Below, one piece after another: positions 43,936 to 50,436 of a stretch of 64,000 bases of DNA (position 1 is its first letter; each line of letters begins with the position of its first letter). The notes under the pieces are model-generated. The model saw nothing but the letters and a program-made list of their open reading frames with translations. It made no database searches and was not told the origin of the DNA. Source of the stretch: Endomicrobiales bacterium (GTDB taxonomy: Bacteria > Elusimicrobiota > Endomicrobiia > Endomicrobiales > CAWCFT01); NCBI GenBank assembly GCA_963794945.1, contig CAWCFT010000002.1, positions 32,001 to 96,000 of the forward strand, in the 5' to 3' direction. A program made the position numbers and the translations under genes.

Positions 43936-44977
43936 ATGTCATCTTATCTTATCACCGGCGGAGCCGGATTTCTGGGCATCAACCTTGTGAGGTACCTTCT
44001 TGCGAGGGGCCATTCCGTAGTTACTCTTGATATCGCGGCGTTCGACTACCCCGACGTCAAAGACAAAATTAAGATCATCACCGGGGACATAAGGGACAAG
44101 GCGGCGGTAGAGGCCGCGATGCAGGGCGTCGATATCGTGATCCACACGGCCGCGGCGCTGCCGCTTTACACAAAAGAAGATATTTACACGACAGACGTCG
44201 TGGGCACAAAGAACGTGATAGACTCGGCTTTTGACCATAAAGTTCAGCGGTTCATACAGATATCGTCTACCGCGGTTTACGGCATACCCGACCACCACCC
44301 CCTGCTTGAAGACGACAAGCTTGAAGGCGTCGGCCCTTACGGGCAGGCGAAGATAGACGCGGAAGCGGTGTGCCTAGAGTACAGGAAAAAAGGCATGTGC
44401 GTACCGATAATCCGCCCAAAATCGTTCATCGGGCCGGAAAGGCTCGGCGTTTTTGCCCTGTTTTATGACTGGGCTAAAGACGGCAGGGGCTTTCCTATGA
44501 TAGGAAGCGGCAACAACCGCTACCAGCTTCTTGATGTTGAAGACCTGTGCGATGCTATTTATCTCACCGCCACGCTTGACAAACAGAACCGTCAACGATA
44601 CGTTCAACATAGGCGCCACGGATTTCACGACCATGAAAGAGGATTATCAGGCCGTACTTGACGAGGCCGGCTTCGGAAAGAAAGTAACCGGCTTTCCGGC
44701 CGCTCCCCTTATAATTACGCTGAGGATCCTAGAATTCTTCAAACTTTCGCCTCTTTACAAATGGGTTTACGAAACGGCCTCAAAAGATTCATTTGTTTCA
44801 ACGCAAAAAGCTGAAAAGCTTCTTGGCTTCAAGCCGAAATTCTCGAACAAGGACGCTTTGGTCCGCAACTTCAAATGGTACATTAAAAATTTGGCCCATT
44901 TTAAAAATACCAGCGGAGTATCCCACAGGGTGCCGTGGAAACAGGGGATACTGGGTCTGGCGAAGGTATTCTTTTAA
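43936..44977 (+). CDS. NAD-dependent epimerase/dehydratase, frameshift near 44590
   Basis: 'ITGGAGFLG', 'SSTAVYG', 'YGQAK'; continues as 'NDTFNIG' in another frame. Confidence 0.88.
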
Positions 44978-45028: not shown

Positions 45029-45192
45029 AAGATAATTTCGAAATCCCAATATCGAAATCCTAAACAATATCAAATAACCAAAACTGCAAAACAACAAATA
45101 GAGGCCAGGCGCGAATAAGTTGAATTTCTTTGATCATTAGAGTTTTTCTATTTGCAGTTTTTTTCGATATTCGTGTTTCGGATTTCGGATTT
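45029..45192. repeat. ~165-bp long-hairpin intergenic repeat, copy 2
   Basis: Homologous to 38862-39026 ('aactgcaaaac', 'ttgaatttcttt', 'ttcgtg.ttcggattt'). Confidence 0.75.
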
Positions 45193-45283: not shown

Positions 45284-46714
45284 ATGATATCTTTGACAAA
45301 GTATCAGATGCTGGATGCGGAGCTTTCGCAAATTGAGGGAGAAGACAGGCAGTTCCAGTGCAGGCAGGTCAGCGACGCCGATGTCAAGGCAATGGCTGAA
45401 ACGCTTAAAAAAGAGAAGCAGAAGGTGCCGATTTACCTGCTGCGGCGCAGGAACGGCAAATTGCAAATATTGTGCGGGTTTACCAGATATCTTGCGGCAA
45501 AACTGTTGGGCTGGGCAACAATAGTCGCTATAATTATCCCTGAAGAAGACTTTGAGAACGAAAATGAGATATATAAGTTCGGGGTAATAGAGAACGGCAA
45601 GCGCAAGCCGTTAAGTAATGCGGACAAGGGGAATATTTGCAAAAGTATGAGCGCAAGGGGCATGAACAACGTTGAAATTGGGGAATGTTTAGGCATAAGC
45701 GAAAAACAGGTGCGCAGGTATTTAAAGATAGCCAATGCCCCGGCTGAAGTGCAAAAAGGCATGAGCGACAATAGTGTTCCGCTTAGGGCAATAGACAATA
45801 TTGACCCGGCAACCGGCCAGCTCGGCACGCGTGCCGAGCAAATTGTGGATAACCCCAATTCACGCGTAAAATCAGTGAAAAACGGGTTTGACGCAACCCT
45901 GAAATTCCGGCTTGGGCGCGATGGGGCGGATTTGATCAAGAAGTTTAAGGCCAATATAGATGAGGCGTTTAAAGAAGCGCAAAAACCACAACCAGTGTCT
46001 CGGGCCAGCCATGGCGGGCTTGACCCGGCGGCTGTAAAGGCCGCAAAGGCCACGCTCAAGGCCGACAAGATTGAGGCAGACGGGATTGAAGCGGAGATCA
46101 AGCTCGGGCAGGCCGCGGTCAAGAATGCTGAAAAGGGTAAGCTCGATTCGTCCGCCATGAAACAGCAGTTACAGGAAAAGATAGATAAGCTTAAAGCGCT
46201 GAAACTCAAGATCAAAGAAGCAGAGAAGTTTTTGAAACCCGCCTCTGCTAAACCCAAAAAACCCACTATTCAACAAGCCCCAGGCCGATCATCCCAACCC
46301 CAAGTGTCATCCCAGTCCAATGTGTCATCTCCATCAAATATGTCATCTCGACCGCAGGGAGAGATCTTACCATTAGGCAATAACTCCGCTGTCGGTTTTG
46401 ACCTGATAGAATTGAAGCTGTCTTTCGACCCGTCAAAACCGCCCGCGGAAAAGCTAACCGAAATAAGCCTCACACTTAATGAATCCAAACCAATATATGC
46501 AACGGCGCAGGTTATGGGAAACCCAGTTCCGCTGGACAAAAGCAATAAAGAAATAAAGTGGCATGGCGACGGCGTTGAAGTAACGCCAAACTGGGGCCCG
46601 GAGGTAACCATAAAACTGCCCGCGCCGCTTGCCCAGCCCGGCAAGCTGACAGTCTCCTGCCGGATGCCAAACGGCAAAGACATTGAAGCAAGCGCGGTTG
46701 TAAAACAATCCTGA
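45284..46714 (+). CDS. Orphan ParB/Spo0J-like protein with HTH, coiled coil, low-complexity linker and beta-rich C-terminus
   Basis: ParB-N-like 'Q..PI.L......QILCGFTRY.AA..LGW', 'IENGKRKPLS', HTH 'NNVEIGECLGISEKQVRRYL'; AAGGAGG RBS; no parA nearby. Confidence 0.75.
   Translation: MISLTKYQMLDAELSQIEGEDRQFQCRQVSDADVKAMAETLKKEKQKVPIYLLRRRNGKLQILCGFTRYLAAKLLGWATIVAIIIPEEDFENENEIYKFGVIENGKRKPLSNADKGNICKSMSARGMNNVEIGECLGISEKQVRRYLKIANAPAEVQKGMSDNSVPLRAIDNIDPATGQLGTRAEQIVDNPNSRVKSVKNGFDATLKFRLGRDGADLIKKFKANIDEAFKEAQKPQPVSRASHGGLDPAAVKAAKATLKADKIEADGIEAEIKLGQAAVKNAEKGKLDSSAMKQQLQEKIDKLKALKLKIKEAEKFLKPASAKPKKPTIQQAPGRSSQPQVSSQSNVSSPSNMSSRPQGEILPLGNNSAVGFDLIELKLSFDPSKPPAEKLTEISLTLNESKPIYATAQVMGNPVPLDKSNKEIKWHGDGVEVTPNWGPEVTIKLPAPLAQPGKLTVSCRMPNGKDIEASAVVKQS
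45820..45839. repeat. Perfect 20-bp palindrome inside the parB-like gene (candidate parS-like site)
   Basis: GCTCGGCACGCGTGCCGAGC equals its own reverse complement. Confidence 0.6.
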
Positions 46715-46871
46715 GCCCGTGGTCCCTAAGCAGGCAAAGGCCGTAATAGCATGGGATTGTGACAATTGATACAATATGAGTCAAAAAGTTAGAAAAGGGT
46801 GTGGTATGAATCAATAGGTGACCCCATTGAATGCTGGGAGCCTATCTGAGAATCAAGGTTTTGGGATGTAT

Positions 46872-46900
46872 TTGACTTACATTTATTAGCAAAGTATAAT
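46872..46900 (+). promoter_or_regulatory. Near-consensus sigma70 promoter for the ATPase/TOPRIM operon
   Basis: TTGACT(46872-77)-N17-TATAAT(46895-900). Confidence 0.7.
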
Positions 46901-47018
46901 AATATCCATTAATACTTGTCAGGTTGTTTATTTTCATAAAGACTGATGCTAAGAAAAAAGCTTATAAACAGTATTTTTTAATGATATTTTATATTTAGAA
47001 AAACAAGAGAGGTGCGAA

Positions 47019-48125
47019 ATGCTTAAATCTTTTAAGGTGGAAAATTTCAAATGTTTTAAAAATCTTGCGCTTGATGATTTTAGTCGTTTTAATATTATTG
47101 TGGGGAAAAATGCTGCGGGCAAAACTACTTTGCTCGAAGCGATCAAGATAATGCTTGATGGAGCTCCAGGATCTCTACCCTGGCTGAATAGTTTTCGCAA
47201 TATTCCCATTTTTATTCCACAAAATCCTACAGCAGAACAATTCCGGCAACAATTTACCGGATTCTTTCACGGATTCCACCATGAGATACCAATAAAAATG
47301 CATACCGTGGACTTCAACAACAGAAATGCGGCATTATCTATTTATTTTGACCCTAAGAAAGCTATTAGCATTCAGCCGAAAATTGGTTTTCAACAGTCAG
47401 CATCAGTTCCACAGCCAGACACATCATCGGTTTCACCGACAACAGTGGTGCCATTAGCATTTGATAGAATGGATTTTGAAGGTCATAGGGATATACCTCT
47501 TATCACTATCCAACCTGGCGGTCAAGTATTCTATCAACAAGGAAAATCAATGGGAATTTCTTCTGGTTTTATAACAGGCACATATATTGGATATCCCTCT
47601 GAAAATGCTACTTGGCTATCAACATTGAGCGTGCAAAAACGCAGCAAAGATGTCATAGAGGCATTACGTCAACATTTTTCATTTATAGAAAATGTAACGG
47701 TAGAAGCACCGTTTCAAGGACTCCCTCCACTTGTATACGCTGATATAAAAAATATTCCCGAGAAACTACCACTGTTTGCAGTTTCAGCAGGAATTAGCAG
47801 AATTTTTACGTTTATAGTAGCAGTAGTTACGTATGGCAAAGGAGTTTTACTAATAGATGAAATTGAAAATGGAATTTTTAACGATCAATATCAGCTTGTT
47901 TGGAAAAGCTTAATTGACCTCGCCCGGCAAAATAACACTCAATTATTTGTTAGTACGCATAGTAATGAATGTTTGCGAGCCATACTTCCCATAATGAAGG
48001 ACAACGAGGATGATTTTACGTTTCTTCGCGCTGAACATCAAAACGGAAATTCAAGTATTTCCCGATTTGACGGAAAGGAGATGGAAGCAGCTTTAGCCAA
48101 TGGAGCAGAGATACGATCGGCTTAG
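47019..48125 (+). CDS. ABC-type ATPase (AAA_15/AAA_21, AbiEii/OLD/AriA-like)
   Basis: 'FKVENFKCF', Walker A 'GKNAAGKT', signature 'VSAG', Walker B 'LLIDEIENG', 'STHS'. Confidence 0.85.
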   Translation: MLKSFKVENFKCFKNLALDDFSRFNIIVGKNAAGKTTLLEAIKIMLDGAPGSLPWLNSFRNIPIFIPQNPTAEQFRQQFTGFFHGFHHEIPIKMHTVDFNNRNAALSIYFDPKKAISIQPKIGFQQSASVPQPDTSSVSPTTVVPLAFDRMDFEGHRDIPLITIQPGGQVFYQQGKSMGISSGFITGTYIGYPSENATWLSTLSVQKRSKDVIEALRQHFSFIENVTVEAPFQGLPPLVYADIKNIPEKLPLFAVSAGISRIFTFIVAVVTYGKGVLLIDEIENGIFNDQYQLVWKSLIDLARQNNTQLFVSTHSNECLRAILPIMKDNEDDFTFLRAEHQNGNSSISRFDGKEMEAALANGAEIRSA

Positions 48126-48137
48126 AGGTGTGTAATA

Positions 48138-48791
48138 ATGGACAATTTTGAGTTTACTAAATCACACTTTTTAATGTGCGAAGGCGATGACGATAAGGGA
48201 TTTCTGGAGACTCTCATTAAAGAGCGTGGCTTACCTGATTTCCAAGTTTGTCATGCAGCGGAATGTAATGATAAAAATACGGGGGGAAGACCTGGTTTTG
48301 AACATTCTCTTGCCGGTTTCTCGATCATTAAAGGTTTCGCATATGTAAAAGCAATACTTATTGTTTCGGATAATGACACGCCTGCTTCATTCAACGAAGT
48401 CTGTAGTGCACTGACTAATAATAACTATACTGCACCAAGCACACCTAATTCAGTTGGATCAATTAAAACAAAACCAGTGGCAATTCTTATGATTCCACGT
48501 AATAAGAATGGAGATTTAGAAACGCTGTGTCTTCCGTCAATTCATGAAAAGTGGCCAAAGTCATCAGAATGCGTCACGTCCTTTCTTAGATGTACAGGAG
48601 CCGATCAGTGGCAAAAATCTTCTAGTGTTAATAAGGCTCGCGCAAGAGCTGCGACAGTCGGATTCAATGAAGAAGACCCATTTAGAGGAATAGGCCATCT
48701 GTTCAGGCGCGGCACGCTTTCTAGTAAAAATGCCTGCTTTGATGAAGTTGCAGAATTTCTCAAAAATTTCGATAAAATGTGTAATATATAG
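48138..48791 (+). CDS. TOPRIM-fold protein (DUF3226-like)
   Basis: 'LMCEGDDD' (TOPRIM Glu), 'VSDND' (DxD), 'GDLETLC'; 12 nt after the ATPase. Confidence 0.7.
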   Translation: MDNFEFTKSHFLMCEGDDDKGFLETLIKERGLPDFQVCHAAECNDKNTGGRPGFEHSLAGFSIIKGFAYVKAILIVSDNDTPASFNEVCSALTNNNYTAPSTPNSVGSIKTKPVAILMIPRNKNGDLETLCLPSIHEKWPKSSECVTSFLRCTGADQWQKSSSVNKARARAATVGFNEEDPFRGIGHLFRRGTLSSKNACFDEVAEFLKNFDKMCNI

Positions 48792-48939
48792 TTTATAAAT
48801 CCCACAGAAAAACCTATTTATAAATACCTTCTAAGATATATTTTATATTCACAACGCATAAATAAACAGAAAATGTTGTTCAGTGTTCTGTAACTAAACA
48901 AATGGTGTCACCTATGAAAGAAAAAGTCAAGGTGACAAA

Positions 48940-49150
48940 AAGTATCTCCGCAGTAGTTTCTAACTACTGATCTGTTCTGTTAAACAAGTTCTTTGGCCGT
49001 TCGCCCGCTTTGTATCGTAAGAAGCTCCGAAAATATCCGGACTTCAGTCACCTATTGGCAGCTCTGCACTTGGCGGACTGCATGATAGAATCGGGCGACG
49101 CCCCTCCGCTAATCAGACTTGTTGAAGCTGTCAGCCTTGCGGCGGACACT
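48940..49150 (-). ncRNA. Candidate bridge/seek RNA in the 3' non-coding end of the IS1111-type element
   Basis: Several hairpins (GCC-GCAA-GGC; GAAGTCCGGA/TTCGGAGCTTC; CAGTAGTT/AACTACTG) plus segments matching the reconstructed target (CAAGTCTGA) and donor (ATAGGTGA). Boundaries approximate. Confidence 0.65.
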
Positions 49151-50177
49151 TCAGGCACCATTGAGCGCGAGGGACGCCGTAGTCCGTATATAATATGGCC
49201 GCTTATCTTTCAAAACTCGATACACAATTTTCAATAAATCTCTGGCAAGAGCCACTCGCGCCACGTTGGGCGCTTTCCGTTTGGCTATAGCTTCATACTT
49301 TTCTGTTCGTTCAACGCTGCTCTTTGAAAAATGGTGAACTGCCTCAATCAATATCCACTGTAGGTGTTTACGCCGATTCTTATTTAAAGAACCGTGATAT
49401 TCTTTGTCGGCGCTCTGGAATGTTCTCGGTGCAAGGCCTGCGTACGCGCAGAGGCGGTTAAATGTTGTAAAACGGCTAATATCGCCTATCTCGCTTTTAA
49501 TAAGCAATGCACTAAAACTGCCGATCCCAGGAATACTTTCAAGATTCCGTGCGTCGGGATCACTTTCGGCTATTGCATGTAGTTGCCACCCGATACGGTT
49601 TTCACGCGCATTCAAAGCGCCTATTTGCTCAATCCAGTTTTCTGCGGCAATCCGGCACGGTTCAGATAATTTGTTCACCGCAATACCGTTCAATTGCTTC
49701 ATTGAAGTATAGTCACCCGTTGACATCTGTCCATGGCGATCAAGAAGTGACTTTAACCGTGCTGTGTTCCGCGTTCGTTCACTGACAATGCTCATCCGGC
49801 AATGCAACAGTTCTTTAATAGCTCGTATCTTCTTGTCTGGCAGCTCTACTGTAGGTAAATAGCCCTTACGGAGCACATCGGCTATAAGCCGGGCATCTAT
49901 CTTGTTCTGTTTTCTTGTTTCGTTTTGCAAATGCTTTCAGCTCGTACGAATTCGCAAGATACACCTTGTAAGCATATTCTTCGGCGAGATCAACGAAATA
50001 GTACCAATTGTAAGTCGTTTCAACTGCAAGTGTAAATGGTCGTGGGAGCGTTTTATAATATGATCGCAACACTTCTGGCAAATTTGCTATACTCTGGCTG
50101 TCAATCCGTTTGCCCTGCTCGTTCGTCACGTAAAACCAAGAACGCTCTTTGTGCAAGTCTACACCAACATAATTCAT
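49151..50177 (-). CDS. IS110-family DEDD transposase/recombinase, one +1 frameshift near 49905
   Basis: 'YVGVDLHK', 'AVETTYNW', 'KKT(D)KIDA' restored by removing one base, 'IPGIG...EIGDISRF...YAGL.P...QS', 'VALAR.L'. Confidence 0.92.
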
Positions 50178-50436
50178 GGCAACCTCCTCGTTTTGTCTTA
50201 TTGCTCGATACAATAAGTTTAACAAAACTAGATGGAGGTTGCTTTCATATTATCAGGCTTGACTTATTGAACTAAAAAGATTTTGACAAAATCTATAAAT
50301 TGACTCAATGAATAAAAACAGCGGCGATCCTGACTAAGTGATTTAAAGGACGTAAAGGATAATAGTTAGTGAAGCCGAGACAGCATTTTATAATGTCTAT
50401 AAATGAATGGTTTGATTCCGTAATCTCAAGGATACA

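Follow-up and report, generated by a model that had tools for sequence, protein, structure and literature searches.

The window analysed here comprises 64,000 nt (C2:32001-96000 of the source genome, G000, 2.9 Mb; other positions in this genome are written in the same way), and the locus under study is a two-gene cassette lying between a short site at 46.8 kb and a copy of an insertion sequence (IS) (Table 1). The cassette has a GC content of 37.2%, compared with 46.5% for the genome. Its ATPase and DUF3226 pair resembles the AbiL and PADLOC PDC-M38 pairs in two-gene layout and HMM matches and is a candidate defence system, although the partner match is weak here (4e-6) and the defence role is predicted from sequence. 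The earlier note had labelled the second protein a TOPRIM protein; EGxxD and DxD motifs, which we take to be TOPRIM-like, are visible in it, and a PDB sequence search gave no match. A strong match to the ATPase was found in 1 of 250 other genomes of the phylum (29% identity), and 97 homologues of the DUF3226 protein were found. Plasmid searches returned one 19-bp chance match and DUF3226 homologues at 24% identity only, a literature search for DUF3226 with ATPase and phage yielded no paper, and the synteny comparison proposed by the earlier note found cassette DNA in none of the 41 relatives searched. The ParB_N-like gene upstream has about ten paralogous matches in the genome with variable C-termini, at least three of which are followed by a TIR-like site. 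Further upstream, a repeat-rich imperfect inverted repeat (45034-45192) has many matches in other genomes and sequencing runs.

Table 1. Features of the locus, in window coordinates.
Feature	Position	Strand	Basis or remark
ParB_N-like + HTH gene, upstream of cassette	45284..46714	+	
Inner arm of subfamily-B TIR, GTATGAATCAA	46804..46814	+	like C11:15167, C15:89793, C4:209664, C17:20837
TAGG, probable footprint	46815..46818	+	only clearly IS-right-end-like bases
Core TG + outer TIR end (target-right half)	46819..46828	+	46818-46825 on minus strand: GGGGTCAC
Sigma70-like promoter of cassette, inside TIR pair	46872..46900	+	11/12 consensus; consensus match only
ABC/AAA ATPase, 368 aa (AAA_15/AAA_21)	47019..48125	+	best PADLOC: AbiLi 2e-48, PDC-M38A 8e-39
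DUF3226 protein, 217 aa, TOPRIM-like acidic motifs	48138..48791	+	PADLOC PDC-M38B 4e-6 (weak)
Right-hand TIR outer end + core, subfamily A, split by IS	48901..48910	-	core 48909-48910
IS1111-type element, one of 5 near-identical copies	48911..50255	-	similarity among copies, shared ends
Putative bridge/seek RNA guide segments	49047..49162	-	nine-member alignment A1 against flanks
Transposase of window IS copy	50177-49151	-	+1 frameshift near 49905 in this assembly
IS left junction + inner arm of right-hand TIR	50254..50298	-	core 50254-50255

Two matches connect the 46.8-kb site with the IS, and both hold as the earlier note had reported them: 46814-46828 (ATAGGTGACCCCATT) is the reverse complement of 48901-48915 at 14 of 15 positions, and 46812-46822 (CAATAGGTGAC) is the reverse complement of 49047-49057, in the guide region, at 11 of 11. 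None of 100 window shuffles gave two matches at one mismatch or fewer (mean 0.00), an inverted copy with at most one mismatch at 60-2500 bp was found for only 9 of 4000 15-mers drawn at random from the genome, and apart from the guide regions of the five IS copies, the 46.8-kb site holds the sole copy of CAATAGGTGAC in 2.9 Mb of genome. The site is also intergenic, continues into a TIR arm, and lies directly after the point where homology to a paralogue on C1 stops at a degenerate TIR. Pure chance, which could appeal to the coding or context-free setting of 7 of 15 metagenome matches to the 18-mer and of 8 of the 29 class matches described below, is thus extremely improbable. The matched 15-mer is a composite, in which only ATAGG is IS sequence and the remainder is a repeat end; the motif count suggested in the earlier note found this end, TGAC(A/C)CCATT, in 12 copies across the genome.

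The five IS copies share the ends TG ATAATATGAAAG (left) and CTTTCATAGG TG (right), with TG as the core at both. The transposase carries the PF01548 and PF02371 domains of the DEDD IS110 type; it is 341 aa long in two of the five copies, intact genes being present at C1:142807-143832 and on C3, and frameshifted in three, and since contigs from public sequencing runs lack one base at 49905, the break in the window copy may be an artefact. Frame breaks at this position and at ~44530-44660, in an epimerase gene, are probably assembly indels. A non-coding stretch of ~240 bp downstream of the transposase gene (fold z -3.5) is kept in nine elements. Beyond the sTIR the element extends by 7 bp on the left (TGATAAT) and 3 bp on the right (AGG), as in the IS1111 family, and the sTIR (7 bp perfect, 9/10 extended) is shorter than the usual 11-13 bp. 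In its layout and extensions, the element fits the IS1111 family. Its guide RNA is predicted from DNA sequence, and the guide segments would run in the order right-target (49162-49154), left-target (49123-49112), right-donor (49091-49083) and left-donor (49058-49047), with the top-strand complement before the bottom-strand match in the target guides; segments vary with the flanks in A1, as read by eye. The segment first guessed to be the left-target guide, CAAGGCTGAC, proved to be a variable stem in A1 and was discarded for this reason. The left-donor guide reads CCAATAGGTGAC in six of nine clade members, with one-base variants in the other three, and right ends finishing in TCAATAGG occur in five of nine, the resident ending being TTCATAGG. 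The guide does match the 46.8-kb site better than the element's own end, as the earlier note had remarked, because the resident right end has drifted while the guide is conserved in the clade. About 25 bp inside the IS right end, an inverted copy of the junction motif (48908-48936) gives a strong hairpin across the junction (z ~-4.4), which is also seen in several relatives.

Four of the five IS copies are inserted in AAGCC-TG-AC(A/T)CC and one in AAGTC-TG-GTACC. The copy at C1:172959 lies in a target that matches the left-target guide exactly and has a non-TIR right half (GTACC). Empty copies of the target are dispersed through intergenic DNA, where TGAC[ACT]CC[AG] occurs 48 times in the genome compared with 23 for the reversed control. 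A matrix scan, with a matrix trained on 16 of these sites, found 43 sites compared with 4 in the control, and the 46.8-kb site scored 11.0, below the cut of 12. On the opposite strand the copies read GGTGTCAG (most) or GGGGTCAG, giving the motif GGGGWSAS, which passages of PMC3733652 and PMC6006769 present as the consensus of the TIRs flanking TIRYT tyrosine transposases. A Y1 transposase gene is found at C15:88240-89124 (294 aa; Y1_Tnp 4e-18; Bac_DnaA_C 3e-5, below cut-off), with a DnaA-like C-terminal HTH and inverted subfamily-A TIRs on either side at 88218 and 89182. Clade relatives mostly share the target class, whether they lie in Candidatus Scalindua, in a gammaproteobacterial MAG or in genomes of the same phylum; L056 is an exception. 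Judging from insertion sites, which show it for the IS targets here, this IS1111 clade appears to target TIRYT-type TIRs across phyla. The string TGACCCCATTGAAT(GC) was tried as a widespread repeat end and rejected, as none of its 22 viral and 8 other-genome matches carries ATAGG; the one viral match to the 17-mer lies inside a phage gene region.

Aligned with both families, the 46.8-kb site reads as a hybrid of TIR arm, TAGG, core and TIR end. The upstream arm scores 10-12 against subfamily-B copies and 6-9 against IS right ends, and 46825-46818 on the minus strand is an exact GGGGWSAS. At -4 to -1, the other subfamily-B copies have GGCC, GACC or TACC, and TAGG is present in nine of nine aligned IS right ends. 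The last four bases of the arm, TCAA at -8 to -5, stand in register with the right ends of sister IS elements. At -20 the site has GTGTG, compared with TTGAC, a -35 box, in nine of nine aligned right ends; BLAST found no similarity to the IS right-end body here, and a genome motif search found no left junction in direct orientation upstream, AAG[CT]CTGATAAT occurring six times, in the five IS copies and at C1:71964. Across donor-left, core and target-right, the site equals the right junction of a 57%-identical IS of Candidatus Scalindua rubra (L053) at 19 of 19 positions, and its ACCCC fits the sister guides (GGGGTC) better than that of the resident (GGTGCC). All four intergenic NNGG sites in G000 are TAGG, and two of these are IS ends. 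A second solo TAGG-core-ACACC site, at C17:91256 near short direct repeats and a tRNA-like end, is probably due to chance. The DNA hairpin at the 46.8-kb site is not significant (z between -1.0 and +0.05); a reading as an attC site, a dif site or a terminator was rejected, with no terminator and no significant hairpin found.

The earlier note had placed the cassette between inverted sites, and the inverted geometry around an AT-rich gene pair stands, but the bracketing is a property of the TIRs for which the IS is not needed. Inward-facing TIR pairs surround cargo at five places in the genome (0.6-4.7 kb, 32-46% GC, three without an IS), counted in a hand-picked list of 27 TIR-like sites in which a sixth pair spans 112 bp only, and behind two ParB-like paralogues (C1:74.9-76.4k and C2:123.7-125.4k) there is likewise a TIR-like site, with other cargo genes; bracketing is therefore a TIR feature. 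An inward pair around cargo is also found in G001 (L204). TIRYT activity may have placed the cargo between TIRs. At C1:137.3-146.5 kb, seven TIR sites, four facing right and then three facing left, with AT-rich cargo, look like a cassette array. Two IS copies lie within TIRs of this array, and its edge carries a Y1 transposase gene.

The bridge reactions described in parts of PMC13626964, PMC11208160 and PMC11208158 pair LT-RT with LD-RD, or LT-RD with LD-RT. Both cassette borders, the 46.8-kb site and the IS right junction, are donor-left plus target-right (LD-RT) and do not make an LT-RD and LD-RT pair, so that neither supplies the target-left or donor-right half of these reactions; by analogy, a pair of right-type junctions does not form a substrate of the canonical kind. 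The earlier note had also offered capture or inversion of the cassette alone (46.83-48.90 kb) between matching junctions by the bridge recombinase. The inverted geometry, the AT-rich and patchily distributed cargo, and the finding in a portion of PMC13626964 that the IS621 donor loop alone can support recombination would suit such an event, but with two right-type borders, inward TIR pairs around cargo where there is no IS, here and in G001, and no joint in thin data, we consider it very improbable. These data are three public DNA runs from one study (contigs, depth ~2-5), in which a 168-bp piece covers 46795-46962, collinear and with no differences; none of the contigs spans the cassette or holds a joint, and the sample sequenced in these runs may be the source itself; they therefore carry no evidence on inversion.

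By the same analogy, the only canonical partner of the 46.8-kb site would be the IS left junction, in opposite orientation, with a predicted inversion of 46.82-50.25 kb through an excision-type reaction, which is weak. The site may act as a weak partner in flipping this segment, although nothing shows that this occurs. On C1, a solo IS left junction (TIR arm, TG and ATAATA) lies at 71962-71975 (+) and is not followed by an IS. It stands at the distal end of the cargo that comes after a ParB-like paralogue. We regard as quite unlikely both that this left-type junction and the right-type junction at 46.8 kb are reciprocal products, and that 46.82-50.25 kb is an invertible switch with the IS left junction. 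In favour of these ideas, the combination of TIR arm, TG and ATAATA is seen three times, including two IS copies, where 0.03 are expected; the C1:71962 arm resembles the right-hand TIR of the window, the 46.8-kb site matches the left-donor guide at 11/11, and IS621 shows donor-like off-target use and rare genomic inversions in part of PMC11208160. Against a reciprocal exchange, GC/AT skew now runs unbroken across both sites (C1 -0.09/-0.09; C2 +0.015/+0.04), where the earlier state that is supposed would show a break, gene orientation is continuous at both places, and C1:71962 could be a collapse footprint that has since decayed. Against either version, the ACCCC of the site mismatches the resident right-target guide, and excision-type reactions of IS621 are ~2000-fold weaker than insertion according to the covered part of PMC13626964.

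Small residues of this IS clade can be recognised in other genomes. The 15 exact metagenome matches to the 18-mer comprise four full IS junctions, three right-end remnants (two being one sequence), one TIR-context site by a small two-gene cassette (L067), and the seven coding or context-free matches noted above. In L067 the identity covers 21 bases, and the surroundings are those of a TIR whose arms are self-complementary. In G003 (L164) and G401 (L088), a TIR arm, TG ATAATAGG TG and a TIR end make up a collapsed IS of ~10 bp inside a TIR, so loss between short repeats near the IS ends happens. No transposase turned up when five genomes of the same order were searched, not even in G001 with its contig-end pieces, and the absence of a transposase in G003 is for this reason weak evidence. 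A scan for short footprints in G401's class gave nine matches compared with four in the control, with L088 as the only clear footprint. In 132 genomes of that class, CAATAGGTGACMCC occurs at 29 places compared with 2 control matches: 14 with a -35 box, 7 intergenic without one and 8 coding. The 14 with a -35 box are right ends, of which 2 have a transposase, 5 lie near contig ends and 7 have no transposase in the fetched upstream DNA.

Other reduced forms were also seen. L011:1390-1660 (G011) holds part of the guide RNA and an IS right end within a TIR cluster, without a transposase, and resembles stand-alone RNA modules. G005 has lone ~40-bp hairpins (L012 ~1490-1535 and L065 ~1495-1540), which inverted TIR ends close and which match the hairpin at the terminus of the IS right end, and a ~35-bp mini-element in G478 (L130 ~580-626) consists of an IS left end, short filler, right-end-like bases and a TIR end. 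At L127:13267-17920 (G492:C2), a minimal left junction and a solo right end in direct orientation are separated by 4.6 kb, and no transposase match was obtained; this is a possible cargo element.

We lean slightly towards the view that the 46.8-kb site is a TIRYT-type TIR bearing the footprint of a sister IS that was once inserted and later deleted. The ends, core and targets of the IS can be read directly, as can the TIR family and the hybrid nature of the site, while we infer the insertion and loss of the sister. A sister element with the right end TCAATAGG and a guide suited to ACCCC would have inserted at the TG core by bridge recombination. Because the TIR arm and the sister right end both carry TCAA at -8 to -5, we propose that a deletion between these in-register repeats, by slippage or by a crossover a few bases off the core, would have taken out the element, so that TIR arm, TAGG, core and TIR end remained. 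In nearly precise transposon excision, an element is lost between short repeats near its inverted ends and a small footprint remains; the likeness for this clade is drawn from L164 and L088. The ATPase-DUF3226 cassette would then be cargo between two inward TIRs, in a layout older than the IS and independent of it, and the resident IS would have entered the right-hand TIR later. Two origins raised in the earlier note thus survive in modified form: a REP-like target of the IS, as a TIRYT-type TIR and not a classical GTAG REP, and, probably, a scar of an earlier insertion, left by a sister element and not by the resident.

Alternatively, TAGG may be ordinary variation of the TIR arm or drift, with its identity to the IS due to convergence or to an IS end derived from a TIR, which is less likely but a serious rival. 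GGGGWSAS permits G at -1, the majority base in G401's class, and C15:89793 (TACC) differs by two bases only, at -2 and -1, so that the IS signal amounts to four bases, or two when set against this copy. A short hairpin (TCAAT...ATTGA) perhaps helps such a variant, although it is not significant, as given above. The TAGG form is found twice inside a repeated ~100-bp unit of L130, once with TGTCCCC, and this duplication and the self-complementary arms of L067 both fit a propagated TIR variant; the seven intergenic TAGG sites without a -35 box point the same way, although none of them is the paired flank of a Y1 gene. The exact TAGG block is, however, ~35-fold above independent column frequencies: 6 of 217 RTCAA-NNNN-TGACCCCH sites carry it compared with ~0.17 expected, where column frequencies were counted by eye among the 150 matches listed, mostly from genomes other than the TAGG carriers, five of the six lie among the 67 sites beyond these and were taken from the CAATAGGTGACMCC search, and one of the six is in a coding frame. 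Also against a native variant, the intergenic NNGG sites of G000 are all TAGG and half are IS ends, and the five same-order genomes hold no TAGG family: of 96 TGACMCCRTT sites, one is preceded by ATAGG and is itself an IS remnant. The footprint has its own difficulties, in that no genome was found with an IS-occupied or non-TAGG allele at the locus, the nearest relatives being of the same order, and the second solo TAGG in G000 looks like chance. A search for a sister transposase in G000, which is 86% complete, found none beyond the five copies and one 28% match. An excision heteroduplex leaving GG at -2 and -1, an idea suggested by the staggered cutting of IS621 in the covered part of PMC11208158, was not adopted, because the guide order is reversed here and non-TAGG NNGG is not raised (6 of the 150 listed).

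Elements of the IS1111 family that target repeats reportedly include IS4321 and IS5075, in the Tn21 IRs, and the IS1111-attC group. The present clade shares with them the targeting of another mobile system's repeat, and differs in having a TIRYT TIR as target, a short sTIR (9/10) and a TG core repeated at both ends. With ISEc11, ISKpn4 and ISPa11, whose seekRNAs are treated in the covered part of PMC11187229, it shares the downstream non-coding region and subterminal IRs with 7 + 3 bp extensions, and with the IS1111 family as described there the ~340-aa DEDD transposase and the top-strand complement placed before the bottom-strand match. The IS621 system (parts of PMC11208160, PMC11208158 and PMC13626964) shares the LT-RD/LD-RT junction logic, a REP-type target and inversion when partner sites are opposed; guide order is reversed in the resident element, and those parts describe neither minimal footprints nor a right x right reaction. 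The ISPpu9/ssr9 modules (bioRxiv 10.1101/2025.01.17.633520, in part) are likewise transposase-less IS110-family pieces in repeats, comparable to L011 and the solo right ends, but arise via circularisation, whereas the remnant at 46.8 kb has only 4-8 bases. With the TIRtrons or TIRYTs (Di Nocera et al. 2013, PMC3733652; subclass 2.1, Quentin et al. 2018, PMC6006769, each in part), the TIRs here share GGGGWSAS and an occurrence as dispersed copies, as dimers and in clusters; in both, repeats flank a Y1 transposase that has a DnaA-like HTH at its C-terminus. They differ in that most copies here read GGTGTCAG; the passages concerned do not describe TIRYT TIRs as IS targets or inward cargo borders. 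Literature searches found neither the targeting of TIRYT TIRs by an IS1111 clade nor the footprints, although the supplements of PMC11208160 and PMC11187229, which list many targets, may include the clade. That IS1111 elements insert into repeats belonging to other systems is already known.

It is also conceivable, though unlikely, that the clade mimics its target, the right end repeating the TIR arm in register (TCAA at -8 to -5, with the G at -1 keeping GGGGWSAS). If so, insertion would leave a usable TIR, and loss would leave hybrid TIRs that double as sites of bridge recombination. Two mobile systems would then serve the defence cassettes that TIRs border, and the resident recombinase could slowly flip 46.82-50.25 kb. 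For the locus itself the yield is modest: the site is a repeat that probably bears an old footprint, and the cassette was not captured on this reading. More broadly, footprints of 4-10 bp would record past visits of the IS and bear on how IS110-family elements exit from chromosomes, and inward TIR pairs around AT-rich cargo suggest a testable role for TIRYTs.
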